IMG/VR virus record: IMGVR_UViG_3300035698_021428 | Length of the DNA: 49,956 nucleotides | Origin: a virus | Direction: 5' to 3' (one strand) | Part shown: in pieces, positions 11,159 through 42,720 of the stretch | How the letters are laid out: every line of letters starts with the position of its first letter | Position numbering within the stretch: position 1 is the first letter of the stretch | Notes under the pieces: generated by a model | What the model saw: only the letters and a program-made list of their open reading frames with translations | What the model was told of the DNA's origin: nothing | Databases searched by the model: none | Position numbers and translations under genes: made by a program

Positions 11159-11241
11159 GGTGGCTATGGCAGATTGGTAATGCACCTGGTTGTGGACCAG
11201 GAACCGTAAGGTTTATGCGGGTTCAAATCCCGTTAGTCACC
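11159..11241 (+). tRNA. tRNA-His (GUG) with encoded G-1 and an unusual 15-nt variable arm
   Basis: 5' g-gtggcta resembles E. coli tRNA-His GGUGGCUA. Anticodon arm cctgg-ttGTGga-ccagg. Variable arm aacc-gtaa-ggtt-tat. T arm gcggg-ttcaaat-cccgt. C73. Confidence 0.7.
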
Positions 11242-11249
11242 CTTTAGTT

Positions 11250-11321
11250 TGGGCTTTAGTGTAATCGGTAGCACAACAGTTTTTGATACTGTCAGTCTGG
11301 GTTCAAGTCCCAGTTGCCCAA
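11250..11321 (+). tRNA. tRNA-Gln (UUG)
   Basis: U1:A72. Anticodon arm acagt-ttTTGat-actgt, the same loop as E. coli tRNA-Gln. T arm ctggg-ttcaagt-cccag. Two U-U mismatches at the base of the acceptor stem. Confidence 0.7.
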
Positions 11322-11336
11322 TTTGAAAGGAAATAT

Positions 11337-11672: not shown

Positions 11673-12300
11673 ATGAGAATCGAGAAACAAGCAAAAGGCG
11701 TTAGACTACTCATGAACGACGAGGCTAAGAACCGGAGGTTGGTTCATCAATGCTTGCGTTGAAGCATCAGAAGCCGCTGGCTTCAATGAAATACTGCTTC
11801 CGCTCATTGAGCCAGAAAGTATCTATGAAGAAAAAGCGGGCACTGAGATTCTTAATCAAATGTACACCTTCAAAGACAAGGCAGGAAGAAACCTCTGTCT
11901 AAGACCCGAAGGTACTGCTACTGTCCAACTTGTTGCGCAGAAAATGCGGAACATGAAAGATGTGAAGCTATGGTATGAAACTCGTTGTTGGCGATACGAG
12001 CAGCCGCAGGCTGGGAGATACCGAGAATTCACTCAGTTCGGCGTAGAGTGGCTGAACCCCCGAAACCCTTCAGAGGCCCGAGAAAGTCTAGAAACGCTCG
12101 CCAGAGCGATTGTAGAGCGGCTGGGAGTTGATTACGAGTGGAACGGAACTGCCAAACGAGGATTGGCGTACTATATTGAAGATGGTTTTGAACTAAGCGT
12201 TCCGTCGCTTGTCGCTCAGAAGCAGGTGATTGGCGGTGGGGCTTATACTGAAGGCATCGGATTCGCCGTTGGCGTAGATCGTATTGCGTTGGCAATGTGA
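11673..12300 (+). CDS. histidyl-tRNA synthetase-like class II core (HisRS/HisZ-like, ~210 aa, no anticodon-binding domain), interrupted by a +1 frameshift near 11735-11745; possible pseudogene
   Basis: RBS plus ATG 11673 gives 29 codons, then TGA at 11760. The +1 frame continues with 'FINACVEASEAAGFNEILLPLIEP', 'LRPEGTA', motif 2 'RYEQPQAGRYREFTQFGVE', 'GGGAY' and motif 3 'GFAVGVDRIALAM'. Confidence 0.7.
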
Positions 12301-23436: not shown

Positions 23437-26127
23437 ATGCAAGACAATGATTCCGGCGCAATCCGAGGATCATCAGGCGATCTTTTGATCCCTGAAGGTT
23501 CATATGCTCATTTTTAAGGACTAACAACTGGCGCAATTTCGACCAAGGTTGGGCCTGCAAGCGTTTCGCAATCGGGGCAAGAACGTCCTGTTGCGTTCGA
23601 TCCAGCAAGGCGACAATTCATTGAAGTTAGCCGAGAAAGTTCGGTCAAACTCAATGTTATCGCTGATGAAACCAGTTATGTTATTCTTTCAAATCCGTGC
23701 ATTGCAGTCGCAGACGGCGATGACCAGCTTATTTTTCCAGGATCTTCGGACAAGATTCCCAATCAAGGTCTAGAGAGCGGTCGAAAAGTTGTGGTTCATG
23801 GACCTGTCGAATTTTCGCTTTGGCCTGGACAGACTGCAGAAGTTGTCCCGGGTCATGCTCTTCGCTCAAATGAATATCTTGAACTTGTTGTTTATGATGC
23901 TGATGAAGCAAAAGCCAACTGGGAATCAGCCTCCGTTGTTGAGACCAAGAAAACTGGCGGCGATAAAGAAGATAAAGATGATACGCAGGTTACGTCTACT
24001 GCCCCTGCTGATCTTCTTATGGGACAACGATTGGTTGTCAAGGGAACTGAGGTTTCATTCTATCGTCCTCCAACTGGTATACAGGTTGTTCAGAACGAAG
24101 ACAATATCTTTATTCGACAAGCTGTTTCCCTTGAATTACTTGAATACTGTATTCTTATCGACGAAAATGGCAACAAAAGGTATGAGAAGGGACCAGCAGT
24201 TGTTCTTCCTCGTCCATCTGAACGATTTGAAAAAAGCTCTAGAGGCAATAGAAAATTTAGAGCCATTGAGCTTCAAGACCAGGCAGGCGTTCATATCAAA
24301 GCGCTCAAGACCTACCAGGATGACGACGGAAAAGATCGCAAAGCTGGTGATGAATTCTTCTTGACGGGCAAAGATCGTCCTATCTACTACCCTCGCGAAG
24401 AAGAAGCCGTTATTCCTTATAGCGATGGCGAAAAGATTCACTTCGCTGTTGCGGTTCCCAAGGGGGAAGGCCGCTACGTTATGAATAAGACCACCGGTGA
24501 GATCGCAACGATCATCGGCCCCAAGATGCTTCTTTGCGATCCGACTAATGAAGTCATCGTTCGTCGCATCCTTACTGACAGACAAAGTAATGATTGGTAT
24601 CCTGGTAATGATAACTCTAGGCAATACAATCGCAATCTTCGAGAGATTCAGGAAGCTGCAGGAACGGCTGGTGATTTTGTTGACGATACATCAACACGGC
24701 AGGCAGCAACCAGGGGGCTTCATTCGCTGCGAGAAAAAGGCAATCCAAGAGTAGGCGGAGCTTCGTTCTCAAGTATGTCCGCTTCCGCCGGATCGGAACG
24801 AGGTTTTGAAAGCTTCGAACAAGCTGGTTCAGCAATGATGGGAGAACTAGATCGGCCATCAAGCTATACAGAACCCAAAAGCATTACTCTTGATACACGT
24901 TTTGCAGGAGTTCCTGGTATTGAGCTTTGGACAGGCTACACCGTTATGGTCGTTGACAGAGAAGGAAACCGCCGAATCGTCAGCGGTCCAACCAATATTC
25001 TGCTCAATTATGACGAGTCATTAGAAATCATAGAACTTTCTACCGGCAAACCAAAATCAACAAAAGGATTGATTCGCACAGTATATCTTCGCAGAGATAA
25101 TAATAAGGTTTCCGATTATGTTGAAGTTGAGACAAAAGACCATGTGAAAGTACAAGTAAAACTGTCATTCCTGGTCAATTTTGTTGAAGACAATCCTAAT
25201 GACGATCAGGATGATACCGATTATCAAGAGCGTTGGTTTGCTAGCGAAAACTATGTCAAGCTTCTTTGCGATCATGTTCGCTCGATTCTTAAGGGCGAAG
25301 CTAAAAAGCACGATATCAATAACTTTTATATCAACTCAACATCTATCATCAGAGATATCATTCTTGGTAATCGTCAGGAAGATGGCAGAACAGGTATGTT
25401 CTTTGAACATAATGGTATGCATGTTATCGATGTTGAGGTTCTTGGAACAGAAATTCTTGATCACAGCATTGCTTCGCTACTTACTGGCTCTCAGCGAGAA
25501 GCAGTTGAATCAAGTATTCGTCTTCAGTCTGCCGAAAGAACGCTTAATGTAACTGAGCAAATGGAAGCGATGTCTCGTAAAGAAGCAGTTGCTAAGAATG
25601 AGACCAAGAAGCACGCACACGATCTAACGATAGAAAGCATTGGAAGAACTCTGAAGGAGTCCCTAGCAGACATATCTTCAGAACAAGACAAGTCCGTTCA
25701 TAGGCTTACTGCTCGTACTGCCGAAGCTGAAGCTACTAAAATGGCAAACGTTATTGAGGCCGAAGCTGCGGTCGCAGGAAGCGAGATTGAGCGAGAAGAT
25801 CAGAAACTCGATCATGAACAGAAAATCTTAGAAGCAGAAGAAATAGCTAGGCTTGACAAGGAAGCGATTGAAACCGAAGTCAAGGCCACAGTTGATAAGC
25901 TCAAGGCCCTTGAAGGTTCGGGGTTGACCGACGTTCTTGCTACGCTTGGTCGAGAAGACTTCTTGACCCGTATAGCTGAATCCAGCAATCTTGAACGATT
26001 GATTGGCGGAGCTAGCGTCCAAGATACTTTGACCGGAATTTTCGGCGTTGAGTCGCCTATTGCTAAGGCGTTCGTTGCTATCAAGGCAGGAAAGCCGCTT
26101 GCTCAATCTTTGCTCAATAGCGACTAG
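23437..26127 (+). CDS. major vault protein (MVP) homolog: vault repeats, SPFH-like shoulder and cap-helix (~896 codons) with one in-frame TAA at 23515-23517
   Basis: GGAGA RBS plus ATG 23437. 'LLIPEGSYAHF*GLTTGAISTKVGP..ERPVAF' vs human MVP '[25 protein letters not shown]..ERVLF'. 'GDEFFLTGKDRPIYYPREEEAVI' vs '[21 protein letters not shown]'. 'YVMNKTTGEIATIIGPKMLL' vs '[20 protein letters not shown]'. E/A/K-rich C-terminal helix. The track ORF 23791 starts at an internal GTG. Confidence 0.8.
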
Positions 26128-26302: not shown

Positions 26303-26655
26303 GGGGGCGATATGGAATCGCTTCAGTAGGGTAGGAAGGATTGTTGCGAGCCGGGGAACCATGCTTAGGCCCCGTAAAAAAGTATGGAATAATTAGTTGC
26401 CAACAGCAACCCACTCCGCATCGCTGCTTGACAGCGGTGCCTGCAAGTCCTGAACGCCGATACGGGATACGCAGAAGATTTTCGGCTGGTCGTCTGAACA
26501 ACTGTTTCAACCAACAGACGATGAGATAAAGGATGAGACCGCTCCCTGTCGCAGACTGTCGCTGGTCGGCTAGGGGCTAAGATAAAACATCGACTACGCT
26601 CGTAGAAACGCCCAACAAACTACTGAACACGGCGGTTCGAATCCGCCCGCCTCCA
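26303..26655 (+). ncRNA. ssrA: tmRNA (SsrA), tag ANSNPLRIAA
   Basis: 5' GGGGGCGAUAUGGAAUCGC.. pairs with 3' ..GGCGGUUCGAAUCCGCCCGCCUCCA (G3:U70, T arm). The tag ORF GCC AAC AGC AAC CCA CTC CGC ATC GCT GCT TGA lies at 26399-26431. Confidence 0.85.
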
Positions 26656-26664
26656 TTTAGAAAG

Positions 26665-28564: not shown

Positions 28565-28831
28565 TATATTACTTCCTGTAAGTTACAGAAGCCTAGCTGA
28601 ATACCGCCTCGAATAGGGGTTGTAGACAGTTTTTATTGGCGTGGAATAGTAGGTAGATGCCTTTTGGCTCGCCGATACATCTGAATCACTAGTAATAGCT
28701 AGCTTATTTTCAATATGGCTAGCAGGTGAATCAAATTCGACTAAACTTGTCGAACCATGAATCGTCGAACAGGGCTTGCGGCGGAGCCGCTGTTCGTATA
28801 CAAACCGACGCCGCAACAGGAGTGCGAAAGC

Positions 28832-30064
28832 ATGCGACTCAATAAGCTCAGTACGAGCATGACAATCATTGGAATGCTGTCTGCTGCATCTGCCTTTGCG
28901 CAGGATGGTGCCCAGGTCACGAATAGCGAGGACCATCAACGTATGATGTCATCTGAAATAATGAATGACGCAGTATCCCGCAGCGGTACACAATCTGGTC
29001 ATAATGGAAACGGATTCTTTTTCTCAGATCCCGATAGAGACTTCACCCTTAACATCGATGGACAGCTTCAGTTTCGCTACTATGCGAACTTTACTGACAT
29101 GGGAAAAACGGACACAACAACTGGTTTTGAGACGGCTCGAACAAAATTGAGATTTAGCGGCGATGTCAACACCTTCGATTATACAGTTGAAGGTGTTTTT
29201 GCTCCGTCAGGCGGCGGGTTTATGCTGCAAGACGCATTCTTCGGTCACTCTCTAGGTAGCAATGCCAACGTTCAGGTTGGTCAGTTTACGCTACCATTCA
29301 TGCGAGAACAGAACGTTGACAGTAGATATCAGCTTGCTGTTGAACGATCAGTTACCGATGCCGTATTTAATCAGGGCAGAGGCCAGGGTTTGCAGTTGAC
29401 GTTTACTCCTGTGGATATGGATAATGTTCGCTTTACAGCGGCATTCAGCGATGGGTTTAGCACGGCTAACACAGCGTACACATCTTCAATGGAAGCTGAT
29501 TACGCAATTACTGGTCGTTTAGATTGGCTCGCCGCAGGCGAATGGTCTCAGTTCGACGACTTTACTTCTCAACAAGATGAAGATTTTGGTTTCCTTGTAG
29601 GCCTTGCTGGTCACCTGCAGGAAGGCGGCGAAACTGGCGGAACTATGGACACTAAAATGTTCAGTTATACTGCAGATGCTAGCGTTGAGAATGGAGGGTT
29701 CAGTGCCTTTGTTTCAGGCGTTACTCGTTCTACCGAAACTACGGCAACTGAGTTCGATGATTTCGGGCTGGTCGCTCAAAGCGGTTTTAGGGTTACTGAA
29801 AAAGATGAACTATTCGCTCGATGGGATGCTGTCTACGCTGATAGCGATCGTGGTCTTACGAATGATGAGTTCAACTATCTGACCGCTGGCTACAATAGGT
29901 ATCTTGCTGGACACTCAGCTAAGTTCACAGCCGATGTTGTTTATGCTGTTGATGATACTGCTGGTATCGGAAGTCTGACCTCATCCCTTGGCGGACTTGG
30001 AATAATGAGCAGCATGGAAAGCGAAGATGTAGCCTTACGAGTACAGCTACAGCTTCTTTTCTGA
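28832..30064 (+). CDS. outer-membrane beta-barrel porin (porin O/P-like), 410 aa
   Basis: Signal peptide 'MRLNKLSTSMTIIGMLSAASAFA|QDG'. Alternating beta-strand pattern 'FTLNIDGQLQFRYYANF'. C-terminal '...LRVQLQLLF' with terminal Phe. Confidence 0.75.
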   Translation: MRLNKLSTSMTIIGMLSAASAFAQDGAQVTNSEDHQRMMSSEIMNDAVSRSGTQSGHNGNGFFFSDPDRDFTLNIDGQLQFRYYANFTDMGKTDTTTGFETARTKLRFSGDVNTFDYTVEGVFAPSGGGFMLQDAFFGHSLGSNANVQVGQFTLPFMREQNVDSRYQLAVERSVTDAVFNQGRGQGLQLTFTPVDMDNVRFTAAFSDGFSTANTAYTSSMEADYAITGRLDWLAAGEWSQFDDFTSQQDEDFGFLVGLAGHLQEGGETGGTMDTKMFSYTADASVENGGFSAFVSGVTRSTETTATEFDDFGLVAQSGFRVTEKDELFARWDAVYADSDRGLTNDEFNYLTAGYNRYLAGHSAKFTADVVYAVDDTAGIGSLTSSLGGLGIMSSMESEDVALRVQLQLLF

Positions 30065-31079: not shown

Positions 31080-32729
31080 ATGGCAACCAAACTTGGAAAA
31101 GGCGAGTATCCCAGCGATCATTCGCCAGAAGACTTTAAATGCTTTGGCCCTCCTGCTCAGGAAGACGGTCAGTTTGACGGCATGATGATGGCTGACATGG
31201 GCTGCTTCAAGCAAGATGGTACAGATTCCAACAAATTCTACCATGGCGCAGTTGTTCAATCCAAAAAAGATGATAGCTGGTATGCCTACTATGAATGGGG
31301 CAGAACTGGGAAAGGTTCTTCTGATAAGCAATTCGTTTGTTGTTCGTCGAAAGAAGAAGCTGAACAAGTATTCTGCAAGCAGATGCACTCCAAAAATGAC
31401 AAGCGAGGCGAATGGGTCAAGATAGGCAGTAAAGACATTCTAAGAGCGAAGACAGGCAAAGACTGCTACCTTATCCGTCCGCTCGCAAAGCGATCTCATG
31501 GCCTTCCAGACGCTCAGACAATCGTCCATGACGATAGCGGCAAAGCTGGCAGCGCCGTCGCTAAGAAAACAACCAAAAAGACCGGAAAGAAAACCAGCAA
31601 AAAGATTGCTAAGAAAAAATCAAACGTTGATCCAAAGACTCTTAGTCTTATGAAGGATATGAACGTTGCAGCGGTTGAATTTACTCGCTCGCAGGTTGAT
31701 AGCGATGCAGTCCCAACTCAAGGCGTTATCGATGAAGGCAGAGATGTTCTTATCGAAGCGGAAAAAAGAGTTAAGAAAATTGGATCAAAGCTTGAAGAAC
31801 AAATTAGCGATAGAGACCTTCGAGATCTAACGTATCATCTCTATTCTCGAATCGGGAAGCCAAAGCCTCTCAATACGCTTGAATCTGCCTGGATTCTTTC
31901 TCAAGACAACATCATGCGTTGGCGAATGGACCTTGATACATTTGAGCAGGCATTATATGCTCTTGACCTAGGCATTGGCAGCGATACTCAGAATACCTTT
32001 GATCCGTTCAATGGCATGAATATTGAGATGATTCATCTCGACCCGACTAAAACGGCTGAAGGTCAATTTATTCACAATTGGATGCCTGGCGCAACGAAAA
32101 ACGTCCACGGGCACGTTGGCGACATGAGTATTGTCAACGCATGGGGCGTTCGTCAAACTGATTTTGCACCAAAATTTGAAGCAACTGCTGCAAAGATTGG
32201 TAATCGCAATTTCACCCCATCTGACAAACCTATCAAGCAGCCCCGAAAACGATCTGATATCTCGCCAGAAATGGCTAAACTATTCGATCAAGCAAATGTC
32301 AATCTCTTATTCCATGGAACAAGATCTGTCAATGTTCCTGGCATTCTTCGCACAGGGCTAAGGCTCCCCAGAGAGCTTGTTGGAGTTGTCCTTACTGGCG
32401 CAATGTTTGGACCCGGTATCTATTGGGCCGATGATTGGAAAAAATCAGACGGTTACACTTCTCGACCAGGAACTTATTGGTCAAGAGGCGGGGGACAGGT
32501 CAAAGGTCGCAAGGCTTTTATGTTTGTTGCCAATGTTGCTCTTGGCAATCCTCATATTGCTCGCGGTCCTCAAGGATATACTGCTCCGCCGAAAGGTTGC
32601 GATTGTGTTGCAGGTCTTGCTAATAAGAGCAGCGTAGCCAACAACGAATGGATTGTTTACGACAGTATGCAAAATTCTCTTACATATCTTATTGAATACG
32701 AAGTTTCAGGCAGCAGCCGTCGCTGGTAA
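31080..32729 (+). CDS. poly(ADP-ribose) polymerase-like protein: WGR, Lys-rich linker, helical regulatory domain and PARP catalytic domain (549 aa)
   Basis: WGR 'FYHGAVVQSKKDDSWYAYYEWGRTGKG'. Linker 'AKKTTKKTGKKTSKKIAKKKS'. Catalytic H-Y-E triad: 'LLFHGTRSVNVPGIL', 'FGPGIYWADDW' and 'NNEWIVYDSMQNSLTYLIEYEV' (PARP1: '[22 protein letters not shown]'). Confidence 0.9.
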   Translation: MATKLGKGEYPSDHSPEDFKCFGPPAQEDGQFDGMMMADMGCFKQDGTDSNKFYHGAVVQSKKDDSWYAYYEWGRTGKGSSDKQFVCCSSKEEAEQVFCKQMHSKNDKRGEWVKIGSKDILRAKTGKDCYLIRPLAKRSHGLPDAQTIVHDDSGKAGSAVAKKTTKKTGKKTSKKIAKKKSNVDPKTLSLMKDMNVAAVEFTRSQVDSDAVPTQGVIDEGRDVLIEAEKRVKKIGSKLEEQISDRDLRDLTYHLYSRIGKPKPLNTLESAWILSQDNIMRWRMDLDTFEQALYALDLGIGSDTQNTFDPFNGMNIEMIHLDPTKTAEGQFIHNWMPGATKNVHGHVGDMSIVNAWGVRQTDFAPKFEATAAKIGNRNFTPSDKPIKQPRKRSDISPEMAKLFDQANVNLLFHGTRSVNVPGILRTGLRLPRELVGVVLTGAMFGPGIYWADDWKKSDGYTSRPGTYWSRGGGQVKGRKAFMFVANVALGNPHIARGPQGYTAPPKGCDCVAGLANKSSVANNEWIVYDSMQNSLTYLIEYEVSGSSRRW

Positions 32730-32743
32730 AAATTAGGAAAATT

Positions 32744-34927
32744 ATGCAAACTATTATTCGTCAAAGTCTTTCTGAATCAGAACTCCTTGATATGGCTAGA
32801 CAAGGTTGCACAGAAGACGCTATTCAAGATGATGGTAAAAAATTAACTCATTATCAAAATTCTGGCACCAATTATGCAGAGTCTCTTGGATTAAATCCTA
32901 AACGATATGAAATCGTTGCAAATGTAATCTATCCATCAAGAAACAGTAGAAATTATTTCTTCGGTCATCATAACACTCAAGAAATACCTGATAATGCAAA
33001 ATTGTTCTTAAAAGCTTCTTACAGCCGAGAACACTATAATGATAAATCAAAAGAAACAGTTCACAGATCTAAACTTTTGTTGAAAAACTTTTGTTTCAAG
33101 CATATCCAGCGACCACGGCATGACGGGTATAACTACGTTAGTCTAGACAAACAAAAATTTATTGCATGCGGAACCATTGAAATCGATGGCAAAGATATAC
33201 TCCTTCAAGGCGATTTTTCATTCTTCGTTGAAGCATTCGGCGTAACTCTAACCAAAGAACTTAAGCTTGACTGGGGCCAAGACAGTTCTCCAATGTTCGA
33301 TGATCTCCCCGCAACTATTTCCTGTATTAGTTATCTAAACGCTTGCTCTGGTCCCTATGGCTACTATGAAGAAAAACGGGATAGAAATAATTCTCAGTTC
33401 AATTTTGATTCCAGTGGCATATATGCCCTTGTTAGTAATTTCGGGTCTGACAAAACTATTATCAGCAATTTTCTTCATGGAATTCTTGCTGCAGGAATCG
33501 TTCCTCAAGCTATAGAGCCCAAAGGAATCTCCAAGATCTATAATAAAATCAGTGAGTATGCCGAATCATTGATGAAGACAGACCCGTATGCGGCATGTTG
33601 TTATCGACAGATTGCTAGGGAAGCAAAACGAACAATCAATAGCGTTAAGGTATCAGTTGTCTATAATGAACTTTTCGCTGGCGTTGACTCGGCAGAAACT
33701 CTCAAGTCTGTTCTTGAACCGTTTGAAGAATCGATGAGCGACCCAAGCAAATACAATGCGTTTGAGAATGCTCTTTCTGGTCTAGGAGCATTCAAGGATC
33801 GTCGTCGTAAAGCTCTAAAAAGTCAAGGGAACAGGGCTCTAACGAAAATCATGGAAGAGAAAGAATCTCTGACCTTTGATTTGAAAAAACACAAACGTCT
33901 TAATAAAGCTATTGAAGCTGGTGACATTCCCATCGGAACATTTTTCCGCAAAAAAGAACAGTTCTTTATTCTCAATGACAACTGGGATCTTTGGGAAAAG
34001 ATGCTCGCGCTCGATTACGATGTTACTGTCAAATTAGCTCAGGAAGTTTCTCGCAGGTCAACCTACGAGAAGGATCTGATGTCCTACTTCTATTTCGTAT
34101 TGGTCGATCTGCCAGCATACCTCAAGAAGCATACAGGATACAAATGGTCATGTATGCCAAGACTGGTTGACAGCGAAAGAGAACTCGAAGCGCCCAAAGT
34201 TGATGAGACAGGAACCGCTCGTTCTCGCTCTGCTCTAACGCCGATCGTTGACAACGATGCTAAAACCGTAACGGTTCCCTATGCGTCTCTCGCGATCGCC
34301 GGACGACAGACAACATATTGCTACAGTCATACCTATATGGCGATTCGCAAAGGTCTCATGTTCAATGGCAACGTCTCCACAGAAGATCTGGGAGAAAAGC
34401 TTAATGGTCGAGACGACTATGGGCTCATGTTCTATACATTGACTGGATCTTTCCAAGGTAGAGGATACCCGACATTTCTTATTATCTTCGAACGTCATTC
34501 TAAAAATGGCAGTAAAGATACAACTGTCCACTTTCATCGGGTTCATCCCAGCCGTTCCAAAGATGGCGACTATAACCCTATTCATAACTGGATTCGGGTC
34601 TGTTATAATTGGATGGCTGGCAATATCAACGCCAAGCGAATTAGGGCGCAGCAAGGCGATTTGTTCTTTGTTTCGACAGACAAGACTCCTGAGTTCGATA
34701 CTCGCGTTATGCAGTATGACAATCACAGGTTTGATAAGCCTGTTGGTTTCTCTCCATACGAAGGCAAGGATAAGAACATCCTTGGCTATATGAAGCTTGA
34801 CGAACCACTGACGCTAAACCATCACGAGCATGATAACGAGAATGTTCCTGCTGGGATCTTCGAGGTACGGCAATGCCGTAGCTGGGAAGCCAACCCCAAG
34901 GGCATTTGGACGATTAATATCGATTGA
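32744..34927 (+). CDS. large uncharacterised protein (727 aa) immediately downstream of the PARP
   Basis: AGGAAA RBS. 14-nt gap after the PARP stop. No PARG (GGG..QEE), macro or other motif recognised by eye. Confidence 0.7.
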   Translation: MQTIIRQSLSESELLDMARQGCTEDAIQDDGKKLTHYQNSGTNYAESLGLNPKRYEIVANVIYPSRNSRNYFFGHHNTQEIPDNAKLFLKASYSREHYNDKSKETVHRSKLLLKNFCFKHIQRPRHDGYNYVSLDKQKFIACGTIEIDGKDILLQGDFSFFVEAFGVTLTKELKLDWGQDSSPMFDDLPATISCISYLNACSGPYGYYEEKRDRNNSQFNFDSSGIYALVSNFGSDKTIISNFLHGILAAGIVPQAIEPKGISKIYNKISEYAESLMKTDPYAACCYRQIAREAKRTINSVKVSVVYNELFAGVDSAETLKSVLEPFEESMSDPSKYNAFENALSGLGAFKDRRRKALKSQGNRALTKIMEEKESLTFDLKKHKRLNKAIEAGDIPIGTFFRKKEQFFILNDNWDLWEKMLALDYDVTVKLAQEVSRRSTYEKDLMSYFYFVLVDLPAYLKKHTGYKWSCMPRLVDSERELEAPKVDETGTARSRSALTPIVDNDAKTVTVPYASLAIAGRQTTYCYSHTYMAIRKGLMFNGNVSTEDLGEKLNGRDDYGLMFYTLTGSFQGRGYPTFLIIFERHSKNGSKDTTVHFHRVHPSRSKDGDYNPIHNWIRVCYNWMAGNINAKRIRAQQGDLFFVSTDKTPEFDTRVMQYDNHRFDKPVGFSPYEGKDKNILGYMKLDEPLTLNHHEHDNENVPAGIFEVRQCRSWEANPKGIWTINID

Positions 34928-34958
34928 CATGGGGTCGCTGAAAAGTAGCAAGCGACCA

Positions 34959-34988
34959 ACGAAAGAGGTACTTATACGAAAGAGGTAC
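34959..34988 (+). repeat. 13-nt direct repeat ACGAAAGAGGTAC x2 (34959-34971, 34976-34988)
   Basis: Exact duplication separated by TTAT, ending 5 nt before ATG 34994. Each copy contains an AGAGG SD-like core. Confidence 0.7.
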
Positions 34989-34993
34989 ACACC

Positions 34994-35386
34994 ATGAATG
35001 GCGCAAAAGAATTTGATCAGACAATTGGAGCAGAAGGACACCGTATTCCTCGCAACGCAACGATGCTTTCCCAGCAGTTGACGAATATGGGATTCAAAAA
35101 AGTCAGGGCGCAGTGGACTGTTAAGTTCACAGCCGAGGCTCCTGACGGATCTGGCCGTTTAACCAAGAGCATCGTCGGAACGGTTGATAAACAGGTGCAT
35201 GGCAACGGTCCTCGTGCAATCGGTGGAAATGGCCAAACAGGTTTGTCTTCTGCTATCGCCAATTCAACAGGCGGAGGGAATGTATCAGCAGTTCCCAAAT
35301 CCGCTGCTAGTTCAGCAACTACTACCGCCCCTGTTCTTCCCAGCGCATTCGGCAGAGGCGGGATCGATAGAGGTTGTGGCGACTGA
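34994..35386 (+). CDS. hypothetical protein with Gly/Ser/Ala-rich C-terminal half (130 aa)
   Basis: ORF track. Confidence 0.5.
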   Translation: MNGAKEFDQTIGAEGHRIPRNATMLSQQLTNMGFKKVRAQWTVKFTAEAPDGSGRLTKSIVGTVDKQVHGNGPRAIGGNGQTGLSSAIANSTGGGNVSAVPKSAASSATTTAPVLPSAFGRGGIDRGCGD

Positions 35387-35417
35387 TTTCAAATAAATAA
35401 TTCCTTTCTGAAATTAG

Positions 35418-35443
35418 CCCCTGGTCTCCGGATCAGGGGTTTT
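35418..35443 (+). terminator. rho-independent terminator
   Basis: cccctggtc-tccg-gatcagggg followed by TTTT. Confidence 0.85.
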
Positions 35444-35513: not shown

Positions 35514-38157
35514 ATGAGTATTCCACAAAATGCAGATCTTTCCATAGTATCTCAAGCTGAAGCCGATCGCCACAAGATGGTTACAGATAATAATGAAGTT
35601 GGAGGAACAAGGGCATTTGTTTCAAATCCTGATTCAAATTTCTCATTTTCTCATCCGAAGGTTCTTCAGCTTGGAAATACCACATCAAATAAAGACGCTG
35701 TTCTTGCGTATCGAATTCTAGTAGTAGAATCAGGCGGGAAAGCAAAGACCCCAGATTTTAATTGGCATTCTGGTATATTTTCTACAGGAGAAAATCTTCG
35801 GGTAACTCATAACGGATCATATTATTACCAGTTTAGAACAATGTGGGATGTTGGCACAAGCGGAAGCTTACCAGAAGGAACAAGTATTATTGAGCTTCTT
35901 GAAATGTATTCCACTGCTGAATCAGCAATTGCTTCAACGCAAAAAAATTGCTTTTTATATTCAAAAAAGCAGCGGCGTAAATCACTTAGTCTGCAAGCTT
36001 GCTGATCCTAATATAGGATACGAAGATCCCACAGAACTATTGCAAAATGGTGTTTGGTATGATATAAGAATGAAATATAAGCCAGAAACAGGAAGCTCAG
36101 CAGATGGAATTTTGCTTGTAGAACAAAAACTTGCGACAGCTAGCTCATGGACTACTTTGATAAATGTAACAAATCATACTCAGAATGCTGATATAATGTG
36201 GGTAGAATATCAGCACAAGGCCTCAAGCGGATTGTCTCCAGGCATAACATCTTCTAAAACCTGGATTGCTTCTAGTTATCAAAGATTAGATAGTTTTGAG
36301 GCTGACGATTATGAATATAATAGATTTAGAACGTCAACGTGCCTGGACGTATCTTCGTCTATAGCTAAAATTAGAGTTCACTGCGATGATGAAACAATTG
36401 ATACATCTTCTGGAGGGTTTATTGTTCAATACGGAACAAATTCGACTTTATCATCAGGTGTTATTGATTCATCCTATACAGCTTTTAGCGCTAGAACCCA
36501 TGACTGCGCTACCGTATCTCTAACTTCATTATCTGCTGATACAAGATATTATTACAGGTTAAAATTTCAAGATGACGAAAGTTCTCCTACCGATACTTAT
36601 ACTGTGCCAGAAATACGGTCATTCAAAACTCTAGCAACTACTACTGGCGGAACTCGAAAAATACTAATTGGAGGATGTAAGGGGCACGCAGGATGGAGAG
36701 GCGGCAATGCTGCTTTCGATCACTTAATAGCTGCTGAAGGCACTCCTGACATGATAATATTCAATGGAGACATGATATATGATACAGACCTAACGCAATT
36801 GGGTTCAGGAAATAGCGACTATGAACTATGGGACTTAACTGAGGATAATTATTCATCAGCTTATAGACTTTCATTTGGAGAATATGATTTCGCAAAAATA
36901 CTTTCTGAATGCGCTTTCTTTGGGATGTGCGAAGATCATGAATTCTTTAATTCATGTGATGGTAATATGCGAGGGCAAGCAGTCAATATGGGATTAGCAG
37001 TTGATAATGCTGGAACAGCATATCCTACTTCTCATATGAATACAACATATCTAAACGGAGGCGGCGCGCCAGTTACAGCCGATGGTATATTCACCATAGC
37101 CACTGATGTTATGGCGTCATGGTGGGGAAACGGAACAATAAACGCAGCCGACTCTGGTTCAGGACGAGATTATTATCGTTCGTTTGAGCATGGTAATGTA
37201 TTAGTTCTTATGTTAGATACCAGAACACGAAGCACTGCAACTAGCCTAATTACATCAGCACAAGAGACATGGATTCAAACAACTATAGCAGCTTCGGACG
37301 CCAAATATATTGTTATTAGTAGCCCCGCTTCATGGGGAGATTATCTTATCAATATAAGTCCAGCCGAGGCATGGGGAAGCAATGCAAATCTCAGAGCGCA
37401 ACGTGCTAGTATATTTAACTGGATAAAAAACAATGCTTCTGATAAAGTAGTTTATCTTATAGGCGGAGATAGGCATACTCCTTATGTTGCGTATCCTAGC
37501 GATTTAACCGGACCAGATGGTCCTCTCAAAAGAATTGCAATGGCATCGCCATTTAACCAAGATAACAATTTCAACACAAGCGCTATTACCGCAATGGCAT
37601 CTGACCCATCAGTCGTATCAGTTATAAGTACCGATGATTATACTGGCTTATCAATGGTCAGAACTTCTGGTTTATTAGTAGAAATTGACGAAGCAACGGA
37701 TACCGTTCGATTAGTTATGTATGATGATAATGGAAATAAATTGATAGATGAAAGCGACTCCTATGCATTATCAACCGAAACCAGTAATGAAATATCAAGG
37801 GCCATATCTATAACAACGGCTCCTACGCACATACCTTCTCCGACCTTTTCTCTAGCAGGAACAAGCTATGCAACAAGATTTATTGATCCGAACATAGAAG
37901 CTATGATAACAAAGCAAAATCTAAATGCGCCTGTTAGCGTTTCCTTTGAATCAGTAACTAATGATTATGAAATCCGCTATACCACAAATAGCAATAGAAA
38001 TCCAACAAGCAAGAGTATTCTATATTCTGGTCCTTTGAGCATAAGTAGAAACTTGACTGGCGTTGATAATACTGTTGTTAAAGCCAGGATATTCCACAAA
38101 AATAATCCTGGAATTCATAGCCGTATAACTAAGTTAGAATTCAACGTAATTATGTGA
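35514..38157 (+). CDS. LamG-like plus PhoD-like metallophosphatase (alkaline phosphatase D family) fusion, ~880 aa, read across a +1 frameshift at an A7 run (35941-35947)
   Basis: Track ORFs 35514..36005 and 35848..38157 overlap. Removing one A gives '...AIASTQKIAFYIQKSSGVNHLVCKLAD'. PhoD_N-like 'LSADTRYYYRLKF'. Metallophosphatase motifs 'FNGDMIYD' and 'GMCEDHEFFN'. Confidence 0.7.
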
Positions 38158-42648: not shown

Positions 42649-42720
42649 GCTTCGTTAGCTCAATGGTAGAGCAATAGTTTCTAAAACTACAGGTTGTCGG
42701 TTCGAGTCCGACACGAGGCA
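42649..42720 (+). tRNA. suppressor tRNA, anticodon CUA (reads UAG); body resembles tRNA-Lys
   Basis: Acceptor gcttcgt/acgaggc. D arm gctc-aatggta-gagc. Anticodon arm atagt-ttCTAaa-actac (anticodon 42681-42683, A27-C43 mismatch). T arm gtcgg-ttcgagt-ccgac. A73. Confidence 0.75.

Follow-up and report, generated by a model that had tools for sequence, protein, structure and literature searches.

A PARP1-like gene of a huge phage and the separable orphan gene that follows it

Introduction

Does a PARP-like enzyme encoded by a phage work together with the gene beside it? The question is raised by a 49,956-nucleotide (nt) stretch of viral DNA (IMG/VR record IMGVR_UViG_3300035698_021428; the whole stretch is called the window below), in which a gene for a 549-amino-acid (aa) PARP1-like protein is followed, 14 nt after its stop codon, by an open reading frame (ORF) of 727 aa, here called ORF2. 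An earlier reading made from the letters alone (the sequence-only reading) had described the two genes as translationally linked and proposed that they may be a writer plus a target, eraser or effector. PARPs have already been noted in jumbo phages, where the proposed roles are host-protein modification or that of a 'DNA damage sensor' (PMC7824862; PMC11662467). Here, we find that the first gene is a further member of these reported phage PARPs, that the ORF2 family is uncharacterised, and that ORF2 is a separable accessory gene. On present evidence, the pair is not a new 'PARP system'.

A PARP1-like enzyme conserved in huge phages

The first gene and its domains lie as follows (position 1 is the first letter of the window):

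31080-32729, + strand: PARP gene, 549 aa, ATG to TAA, in the order WGR, basic linker, helical domain (HD)-like region, ADP-ribosyltransferase (ART) domain
31212-31403, + strand: WGR domain, aa 45-108 (Pfam PF05406, E 2.8e-07, 31 bits against a cut-off of 22), aligning with the PARP1 WGR
31563-31619, + strand: Lys-rich linker KKTTKKTGKKTSKKIAKKK, aa 162-180
31737-32114, + strand: HD-like helical region, about aa 220-345, with approximate limits from a profile alignment to the PARP1 helical domain
32112-32699, + strand: ART (PARP catalytic) domain (Pfam PF00644 at aa 345-517, E 8.7e-21, 74.8 bits against a cut-off of 26.7)
32313-32315, 32421-32423 and 32646-32648, + strand: catalytic triad, H412 (LLFHGTR), Y448 (GIYWAD) and E523 (NNEWIVY)

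Judged by its sequence, this is a genuine PARP1-3-type ADP-ribosyltransferase of the H-Y-E clade. The sequence-only reading had called it PARP1-like, and the WGR domain and the ART domain with its intact triad, together with a putative HD-like region, bear this out. The three triad residues are invariant in all 16 orthologues (46-71% identical), and a profile built from these 16 matches human PARP1 WGR-HD-CAT constructs in the PDB at E 5e-26 in three collinear segments (per-segment i-Evalues of 0.019 for WGR, 0.018 for the helical domain and 4.5e-15 for ART). A regulatory helical domain, which had been described as retained, is plausible and marginally supported by sequence: profile positions 213-353 are collinear with the PARP1 helical domain at the marginal per-domain value just given, while Pfam PARP_reg has no match in the gene at E<=0.01. 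The Lys-rich linker, suggested earlier as a nucleic-acid-binding or automodification site, is indeed present at aa 162-180, but it coincides with the most variable, gapped block of the 16-orthologue alignment (columns about 160-195). The segment is basic in the window and in three related loci (L015, L001 and L005) and not basic in PARP clades B and C, and it varies in length among the orthologues.

The phage protein shares with eukaryotic PARP1/2/3 the order of WGR, a putative helical region and ART together with the H-Y-E triad, and PARP1 WGR-HD-CAT constructs are its best PDB matches. The differences are that it is encoded by a bacteriophage, that identity is about 30-35% and limited to the ART core, with the HD match marginal, and that PARP1's zinc fingers and BRCT domain are missing. 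The automodification domain of PARP1 lies upstream of WGR; the phage protein instead has its short, variable basic linker between WGR and HD. Among phages, Xanthomonas phage XacN1 (BBA65562.1) and Cellulophaga phage phi4:1 likewise encode PARP-clade ART domains. Matches in isolate phages cover only the ART third, at 31-43% identity, whereas the full-length WGR-HD-ART family, whose members match at 44-71% identity along almost the whole protein, comes only from contigs of uncultured huge phages. This PARP belongs to a family conserved in huge phages. A PADLOC search for known anti-phage defence or anti-defence systems gave no match for PARP, ORF2 or their neighbours.

The window itself is huge-phage DNA, with nearly all of its genes on one strand. 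We base this on its 12 tRNAs, its transfer-messenger RNA (tmRNA) and lysyl-tRNA synthetase (LysRS) genes, its collinearity with a 498-kb IMG/VR contig (L015), and the top phage-database match of its PARP, which comes from an uncultured phage of 595 kb and covers 98% of the protein at 50% identity. Its source is a huge aquatic bacteriophage of roughly the 0.5 Mb class. The gene order common to L015 and the window is a 406-aa gene, a porin, two small genes, PARP, a 130-aa gene, a glycosyltransferase, a SpoU-like gene and His_Phos_1; the two PARPs are 71% identical and the 130-aa genes 73%.

An orphan family downstream

ORF2 and its surroundings are laid out as follows:

32730-32743, + strand: intergenic spacer aaattaggaaaatt, 14 nt, with AGGA at 32735-32738, 5 nt before the ORF2 ATG
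32744-34927, + strand: ORF2, 727 aa, ATG to TGA, a phage-restricted orphan family
32744-33403, + strand: ORF2 N-terminal variable alpha/beta region, aa 1-220 (column identity 0.15-0.43; secondary structure from the AlphaFold2 (AF2) model)
33404-34138, + strand: ORF2 helical middle region, aa 221-465 (helices at 223-464; conservation climbs from aa 340)
34139-34924, + strand: ORF2 conserved beta-rich C-terminal domain, aa 466-727
34994-35386, + strand: 130-aa gene, 73% identical to L015:11689-12099, where it is the next gene after PARP
35416-35441, + strand: terminator-like hairpin with an 11-bp stem, 6 GC and a T-rich tail (consensus scan only)

Both ORFs, their coordinates and the 14-nt gap with its ribosome-binding site are as first described, and neither ORF arises by chance, because both have many homologues of matching length. 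'Translationally linked' overstates the arrangement: the spacing is that of an ordinary operon, ORF2 has its own ribosome-binding site, and stop and start do not overlap. The two closely spaced genes are probably co-transcribed, since a consensus scan found no terminator-like site between them and the first strong one comes after the next gene. This hairpin is likely to mark the end of a PARP-ORF2-130aa transcription unit. Promoter-like matches in the window were no commoner than in shuffled sequence. A conserved leader (gaggtacttaYacgaaagaggtacacaccATG) precedes the 130-aa gene in both the window (34963-34993) and L015 (11661-11688), and holds a duplicated AGAGGTAC motif in both. A 7-bp hairpin at 34933-34957, after the ORF2 stop, occurs in the window and not in L015.

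A word-indexed search retrieved 116 ORF2 homologues, mostly of 650-780 aa, all without Pfam domains or informative names. Run exhaustively against 1.84 billion cluster representatives, HMMER returned 176 relatives at E<=1e-3 and 134 at 1e-30, and no tail of more distant relatives appeared among these 1.84e9 proteins. Among 185,579 species-representative genomes, ORF2 occurred in seven contigs of metagenome-assembled genomes (candidate phyla radiation bins and one Armatimonadota bin) and in no isolate genome. A tblastn search of 50,697 deposited phage records gave no match, and an exact-sequence look-up of the window ORF2 in public assemblies found no record.

The absence of any recognisable domain, noted by eye in the sequence-only reading, holds up: neither PARG, macro, ARH nor any other domain was found. 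Pfam, PHROGs, NCBIfam and PADLOC gave no match to the whole protein or to five segments of it (E<=10), a fold search with ORF2 found no relative, and a 43-member ORF2 profile run against all PDB sequences returned only noise (E>=0.15), in the helical region. Ten divergent or longer relatives taken from the exhaustive search were also free of Pfam domains. One of the relatives, the 1191-aa P0113, was considered as an intein or fusion and rejected; it diverges after aa 594, does not return to family sequence and has no Pfam domain, and is probably a chimeric gene call.

Conservation is concentrated at the C-terminus, where column identity over the last ~330 aa is 0.6-0.88. The invariant or near-invariant residues of this part are R495, D557/D558, E583, H596/H598/H601, K606, Q637-G638-D639, H661, H693/E695/H696, N717 and the terminal D727. 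Because this domain is so strongly conserved and rich in His, Asp and Arg, its sequence suggests that ORF2 is a putative enzyme, possibly metal-dependent, with a substrate of its own. The AF2 models reach a predicted local distance difference test score (pLDDT) of 83 for the full length and 83 for the C-terminal domain, the latter with a predicted template modelling score (pTM) of 0.80. The last 12 residues (aa 716-727, ..ANPKGxWxxxID, within 34716-34927) are conserved to the terminal Asp and predicted to be disordered (pLDDT<50) in both models, a pattern that fits a peptide docking onto another subunit or partner. By eye, the motif HFHRxHPSRSKDGDYNPIH in a beta-beta-alpha context also brings a His-Me/HNH-like reading to mind, which we do not claim.

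ORF2 with and without PARP

We gathered 81 ORF2 loci, 60 of them non-redundant, from assemblies, IMG/VR and metagenomes, and clustered all neighbouring ORFs. In four loci (the window, L007, L010 and L033), PARP lies directly upstream of ORF2, with gaps of 14-29 nt; in L031 it is upstream at a distance of 2.1 kb, and in L005 it is downstream at 3.8 kb. The PARP-to-ORF2 adjacency persists even where both proteins have diverged to ~50% identity. A tree of the ORF2 C-terminal domain places the six copies linked to window-type PARP in one subclade, in which metallophosphatase, His_Phos_1 and glycosyltransferase neighbours are equally syntenic.

Elsewhere, each gene is found without the other. In L015, only 45 nt separate the PARP stop from the 130-aa gene and ORF2 is cleanly absent; in the window, the ORF2 cassette is inserted exactly between the PARP stop and the conserved leader of the 130-aa gene, with clean junctions. 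Within PARP clade B, ORF2 is present in L007, L010 and L033 and not in L017, L018, L019, L026 and L027; the PARPs of these last five match that of L007 at 81-84% identity. Of the 14 IMG/VR loci retrieved with the window PARP, only 2 carry ORF2 within 10 kb. Profile counts in IMG/VR gave 23 contigs with PARP and eight with ORF2, two being common to both, and ORF2 is missing from all 14 PARP-bearing contigs that measure 164 kb or more (the motif scan for ORF2 recovered 103 of 104 known full-length members). The 595-kb phage LR756511.1 likewise has PARP and no ORF2. Conversely, about 20 ORF2 loci (at least 20) have no PARP, although each of their flanks extends for 5 kb or more.

ORF2 is thus a separable accessory gene, gained and lost independently of PARP. 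As PARP occurs without ORF2 in the nearest relatives and ORF2 without PARP elsewhere, an obligate partnership is ruled out, and the writer with its target, eraser or effector is unsupported in its obligate form: L015 and five clade-B relatives keep PARP alone, and most ORF2 loci lack PARP. Synteny in relatives, on which that pairing had been made to depend, gives a mixed answer. One lineage keeps it (with the two genes adjacent in the window, L007, L010 and L033 and close together in L031 and L005), but L015, the five clade-B relatives and the 14 large contigs have PARP without ORF2. The simplest history is an ancient PARP-ORF2 arrangement followed by repeated loss of ORF2 with PARP kept, ORF2 surviving also in PARP-less contexts.

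What else adjoins ORF2

PARP is the commonest neighbour family of ORF2, at 7/60 loci (six window-type and L009), and each of the other families occurs in at most 5/60. We also scanned the 143 nearest ORF2 neighbours of at least 155 aa with Pfam, using as a control 143 ORFs of these loci that lie 4.5 kb or more from it. Among the nearest neighbours were PARP/WGR (5), HNH (3), ARH, NUDIX, CCA-adding enzyme and Aldolase_II (2 each), and Macro, Thg1, RNA ligase, His_Phos_1 and anti-Pycsar Apyc1 (one each). In the control, NADAR was the only ADP-ribose family, with at least 2 ORFs (among the 25 families listed). ADP-ribose families thus number 10/143 near ORF2 against at least 2/143 in the control, a nominally significant difference (Fisher p = 0.035).

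Individual loci show the kind of company that ORF2 keeps. In L005, it is flanked by an NAPRTase-family gene on one side and a cytidylyltransferase/NMNAT-type gene on the other, and a phosphoribosyl-pyrophosphate (PRPP)-synthetase-like gene lies upstream. In the PARP-less L008, the gene directly upstream is a 430-aa DFP/aldolase-like gene, and an ADP-ribosylglycohydrolase lies two genes up. This gene, which encodes a conserved protein of ~430 aa with DFP (PPCS-like) and class II aldolase-like Pfam matches, recurs 2-4 kb 3' of PARP in clade-B phages, both those that carry ORF2 and those that do not. It is not in the window; its positions elsewhere include:

L008 8052-9338: DFP/aldolase-like gene
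L010 6133-7431: DFP/aldolase-like gene
L007 15406-16665: DFP/aldolase-like gene (with others elsewhere)

Two further PARP-less loci have an HNH endonuclease gene starting 1-2 nt after the ORF2 homologue (L014 11154-11819 and L083 11111-11779), which suggests that the 3' end of ORF2, being highly conserved, serves homing endonucleases as a landing site. Taken together, the neighbourhoods give a weak indication that ORF2 tends to sit in an NAD+/ADP-ribose/RNA-repair accessory island of these phages.

A vault-like gene and other features of the window

Further features of the window are:

649-1803, + strand: LysRS homologue, 384 aa, short (E 4e-70 to PDB LysRS)
23437-26127, + strand: major vault protein (MVP)-like gene (Pfam Vault, Vault_3 and MVP_shoulder, E 5e-25), ~5 kb upstream of PARP
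26303-26658, + strand: tmRNA (Rfam, 129.6 bits), tag peptide ANSNPLRIAA, immediately 3' of the MVP-like gene
28757-30064, + strand: phosphate-selective porin O/P-like gene, syntenic upstream of PARP in many related loci
35848-38157, + strand: PhoD-like phosphatase with Fn3-associated C-terminal domains

Along its full length, the MVP-like gene shares 55% identity with P0117, a 915-aa protein encoded on a 498-kb marine contig, and its homologues number more than 2,900. A single in-frame TAA (23515-23517) aligns with a Gln of P0117, and because of it a mechanical ORF list gives the gene as 778 aa from 23791; this could reflect a pseudogene, a sequencing error or read-through. Vault particles combine MVP with vPARP (PARP4) and TEP1, and an MVP-like gene near a phage PARP recalls this composition. 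However, the phage PARP is PARP1-like with a WGR domain and matches PARP4 more weakly and in the ART domain only, and ORF2 has no TROVE, NACHT or WD40 domain. An IMG/VR scan found no close relatives of the MVP-like gene, and none of the 28 related loci examined has MVP within 10 kb of PARP. A 2023 preprint described MVPs in phages and found neither vPARP nor TEP1 there. We thus rejected a phage 'vault' with PARP as vPARP and ORF2 as TEP1, given that the PARP is closest to PARP1, that ORF2 lacks TROVE and WD40, and that the proximity of MVP is not conserved.

Ten of the tRNAs fall between 2026 and 14150, and a 146-aa ORF at 11860-12300 (+), downstream of tRNA-His and tRNA-Gln genes (11160-11322), is by eye a candidate HisRS fragment. 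Two tRNAs with a CTA anticodon (42649-42720 and 45505-45577, +) are amber suppressors, labelled Pyl by ARAGORN. With them, TAG could be read through or recoded in some of the phage genes, and TAG is the stop of 9 of the 29 ATG-initiated + strand ORFs of at least 150 aa in the window. The limits of PARP and ORF2 are unaffected by such recoding, because their stops are TAA and TGA. The porin-like and PhoD-like genes are phosphate-acquisition-type auxiliary genes that flank PARP and ORF2. The segment 35514-38157, which holds a 163-aa ORF and the PhoD-like gene, is missing from the collinear L015, as is ORF2.

Discussion

Our preferred reading joins a genuine huge-phage PARP1-like enzyme to a separable orphan-family gene that is probably co-transcribed with it and likely encodes an enzyme acting on a substrate of its own in the sphere of NAD, ADP-ribose and nucleic-acid conflict; taken as a whole, we hold it to be evenly balanced between right and wrong. 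By analogy with PARP1-3, the phage PARP would most likely use NAD+ to ADP-ribosylate itself or other proteins, triggered by contact between its WGR domain and broken or nicked nucleic acid. The variable basic linker and an HD-like, presumably autoinhibitory region would separate this sensor from the ART domain. ORF2, as a putative metal-dependent enzyme, would act on its own substrate rather than as the dedicated partner of PARP. It may serve an island devoted to host takeover or counter-defence through NAD+, ADP-ribose and nucleic acids. This last step is the weakest in the chain; it is suggested because ORF2 recurs among PARP, ARH, Macro, NUDIX, NAD-salvage and RNA-repair genes.

Three observations weigh against this reading. 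A different PARP type, of 436 aa, lies 3.3 kb downstream of ORF2 in L009, outside the main ORF2 subclade. The position of PARP as the top neighbour of ORF2, in a tight adjacency that survives divergence, could reflect selection for co-expression. And without PARP, the enrichment of ADP-ribose families is gone (5/143 against at least 2/143, p = 0.45).

The last of these favours an ORF2 that has nothing to do with NAD+ or ADP-ribose: an accessory protein, for instance a nucleic-acid-processing enzyme or a host-takeover factor, in a hypervariable, recombination-prone region, where adjacency to PARP is only inherited gene order. Such a protein would suit an extremely variable neighbourhood, in which no family other than PARP exceeds 5/60 loci, and a gene that comes and goes as a clean indel cassette. 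In three loci, an HNH homing endonuclease gene lies right beside ORF2, as is typical of conserved genes that serve as homing targets. We nevertheless consider it somewhat unlikely, as ORF2 recurs near ARH, Macro, NUDIX and NAD-salvage genes and near two PARP types across ORF2 clades, more than in the control set.

The other two observations lean the opposite way, towards ORF2 as a dedicated PARP partner, whether an unconventional hydrolase of poly- or mono-ADP-ribose, an HPF1-like cofactor that would complete or redirect the active site, or the main automodification-type target, made from the same transcript so that both proteins appear together. PARP is directly upstream in four loci and within 4 kb in L031 and L005, its spacing from ORF2 is tight with no terminator between, and L009 has an independent PARP type in the vicinity of ORF2. 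Other ADP-ribose-processing genes adjoin ORF2 in PARP-less loci, and the conserved, predicted disordered tail looks like a partner-binding peptide. The loci speak against it: PARP is kept without ORF2 in L015, in five clade-B relatives, in 14/14 large IMG/VR contigs and in LR756511.1; at least 20 well-flanked ORF2 loci have no PARP; and the PARP-linked ORF2s form a single subclade, where other neighbours are just as syntenic. ORF2 also resembles none of PARG, macro, ARH, NUDIX and HPF1 in sequence or fold. A dedicated partnership is thus unlikely, although a facultative relationship may hold and is compatible with the data.

A related and decidedly unlikely possibility is that ORF2 founds a structurally unprecedented class of NAD+/ADP-ribose-system proteins in huge phages, as a non-canonical hydrolase or reader of ADP-ribose adducts (from the phage PARP or from host ART/NADase defences) or as a facultative modulator that retargets the phage PARP. 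It would account for the way in which ORF2, in separate phage lineages, nests by PARP, ARH, Macro, NUDIX and NAD-salvage genes. Partners of known type can be set aside briefly. With PARG, ARH3, macrodomain hydrolases and HPF1, ORF2 shares only the genomic logic of a gene beside a writer, with no similarity in sequence or fold and no consistent co-inheritance with PARP; an eraser of the PARG, macrodomain, ARH or NUDIX type was rejected for want of a hydrolase domain by profile or fold, and an HPF1-type cofactor for want of a Pfam match and because most related genomes have PARP without ORF2.

Returning to our preferred reading, in which a phage PARP stands beside a separable gene, both proteins deserve attention in their own right. 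ORF2 is a conserved, phage-restricted family with confident AF2 models and no detectable fold relatives, and is therefore a good place to look for a new enzyme or binding fold. If a writer and its partner are nonetheless sought here, the relationship should be expected to be facultative and not obligate, and L015-type phages, with PARP and without ORF2, are natural controls. Phage PARP1-like enzymes with a DNA-sensing WGR domain have barely been studied, and could reveal what role poly- or mono-ADP-ribosylation plays in infected bacterial cells.

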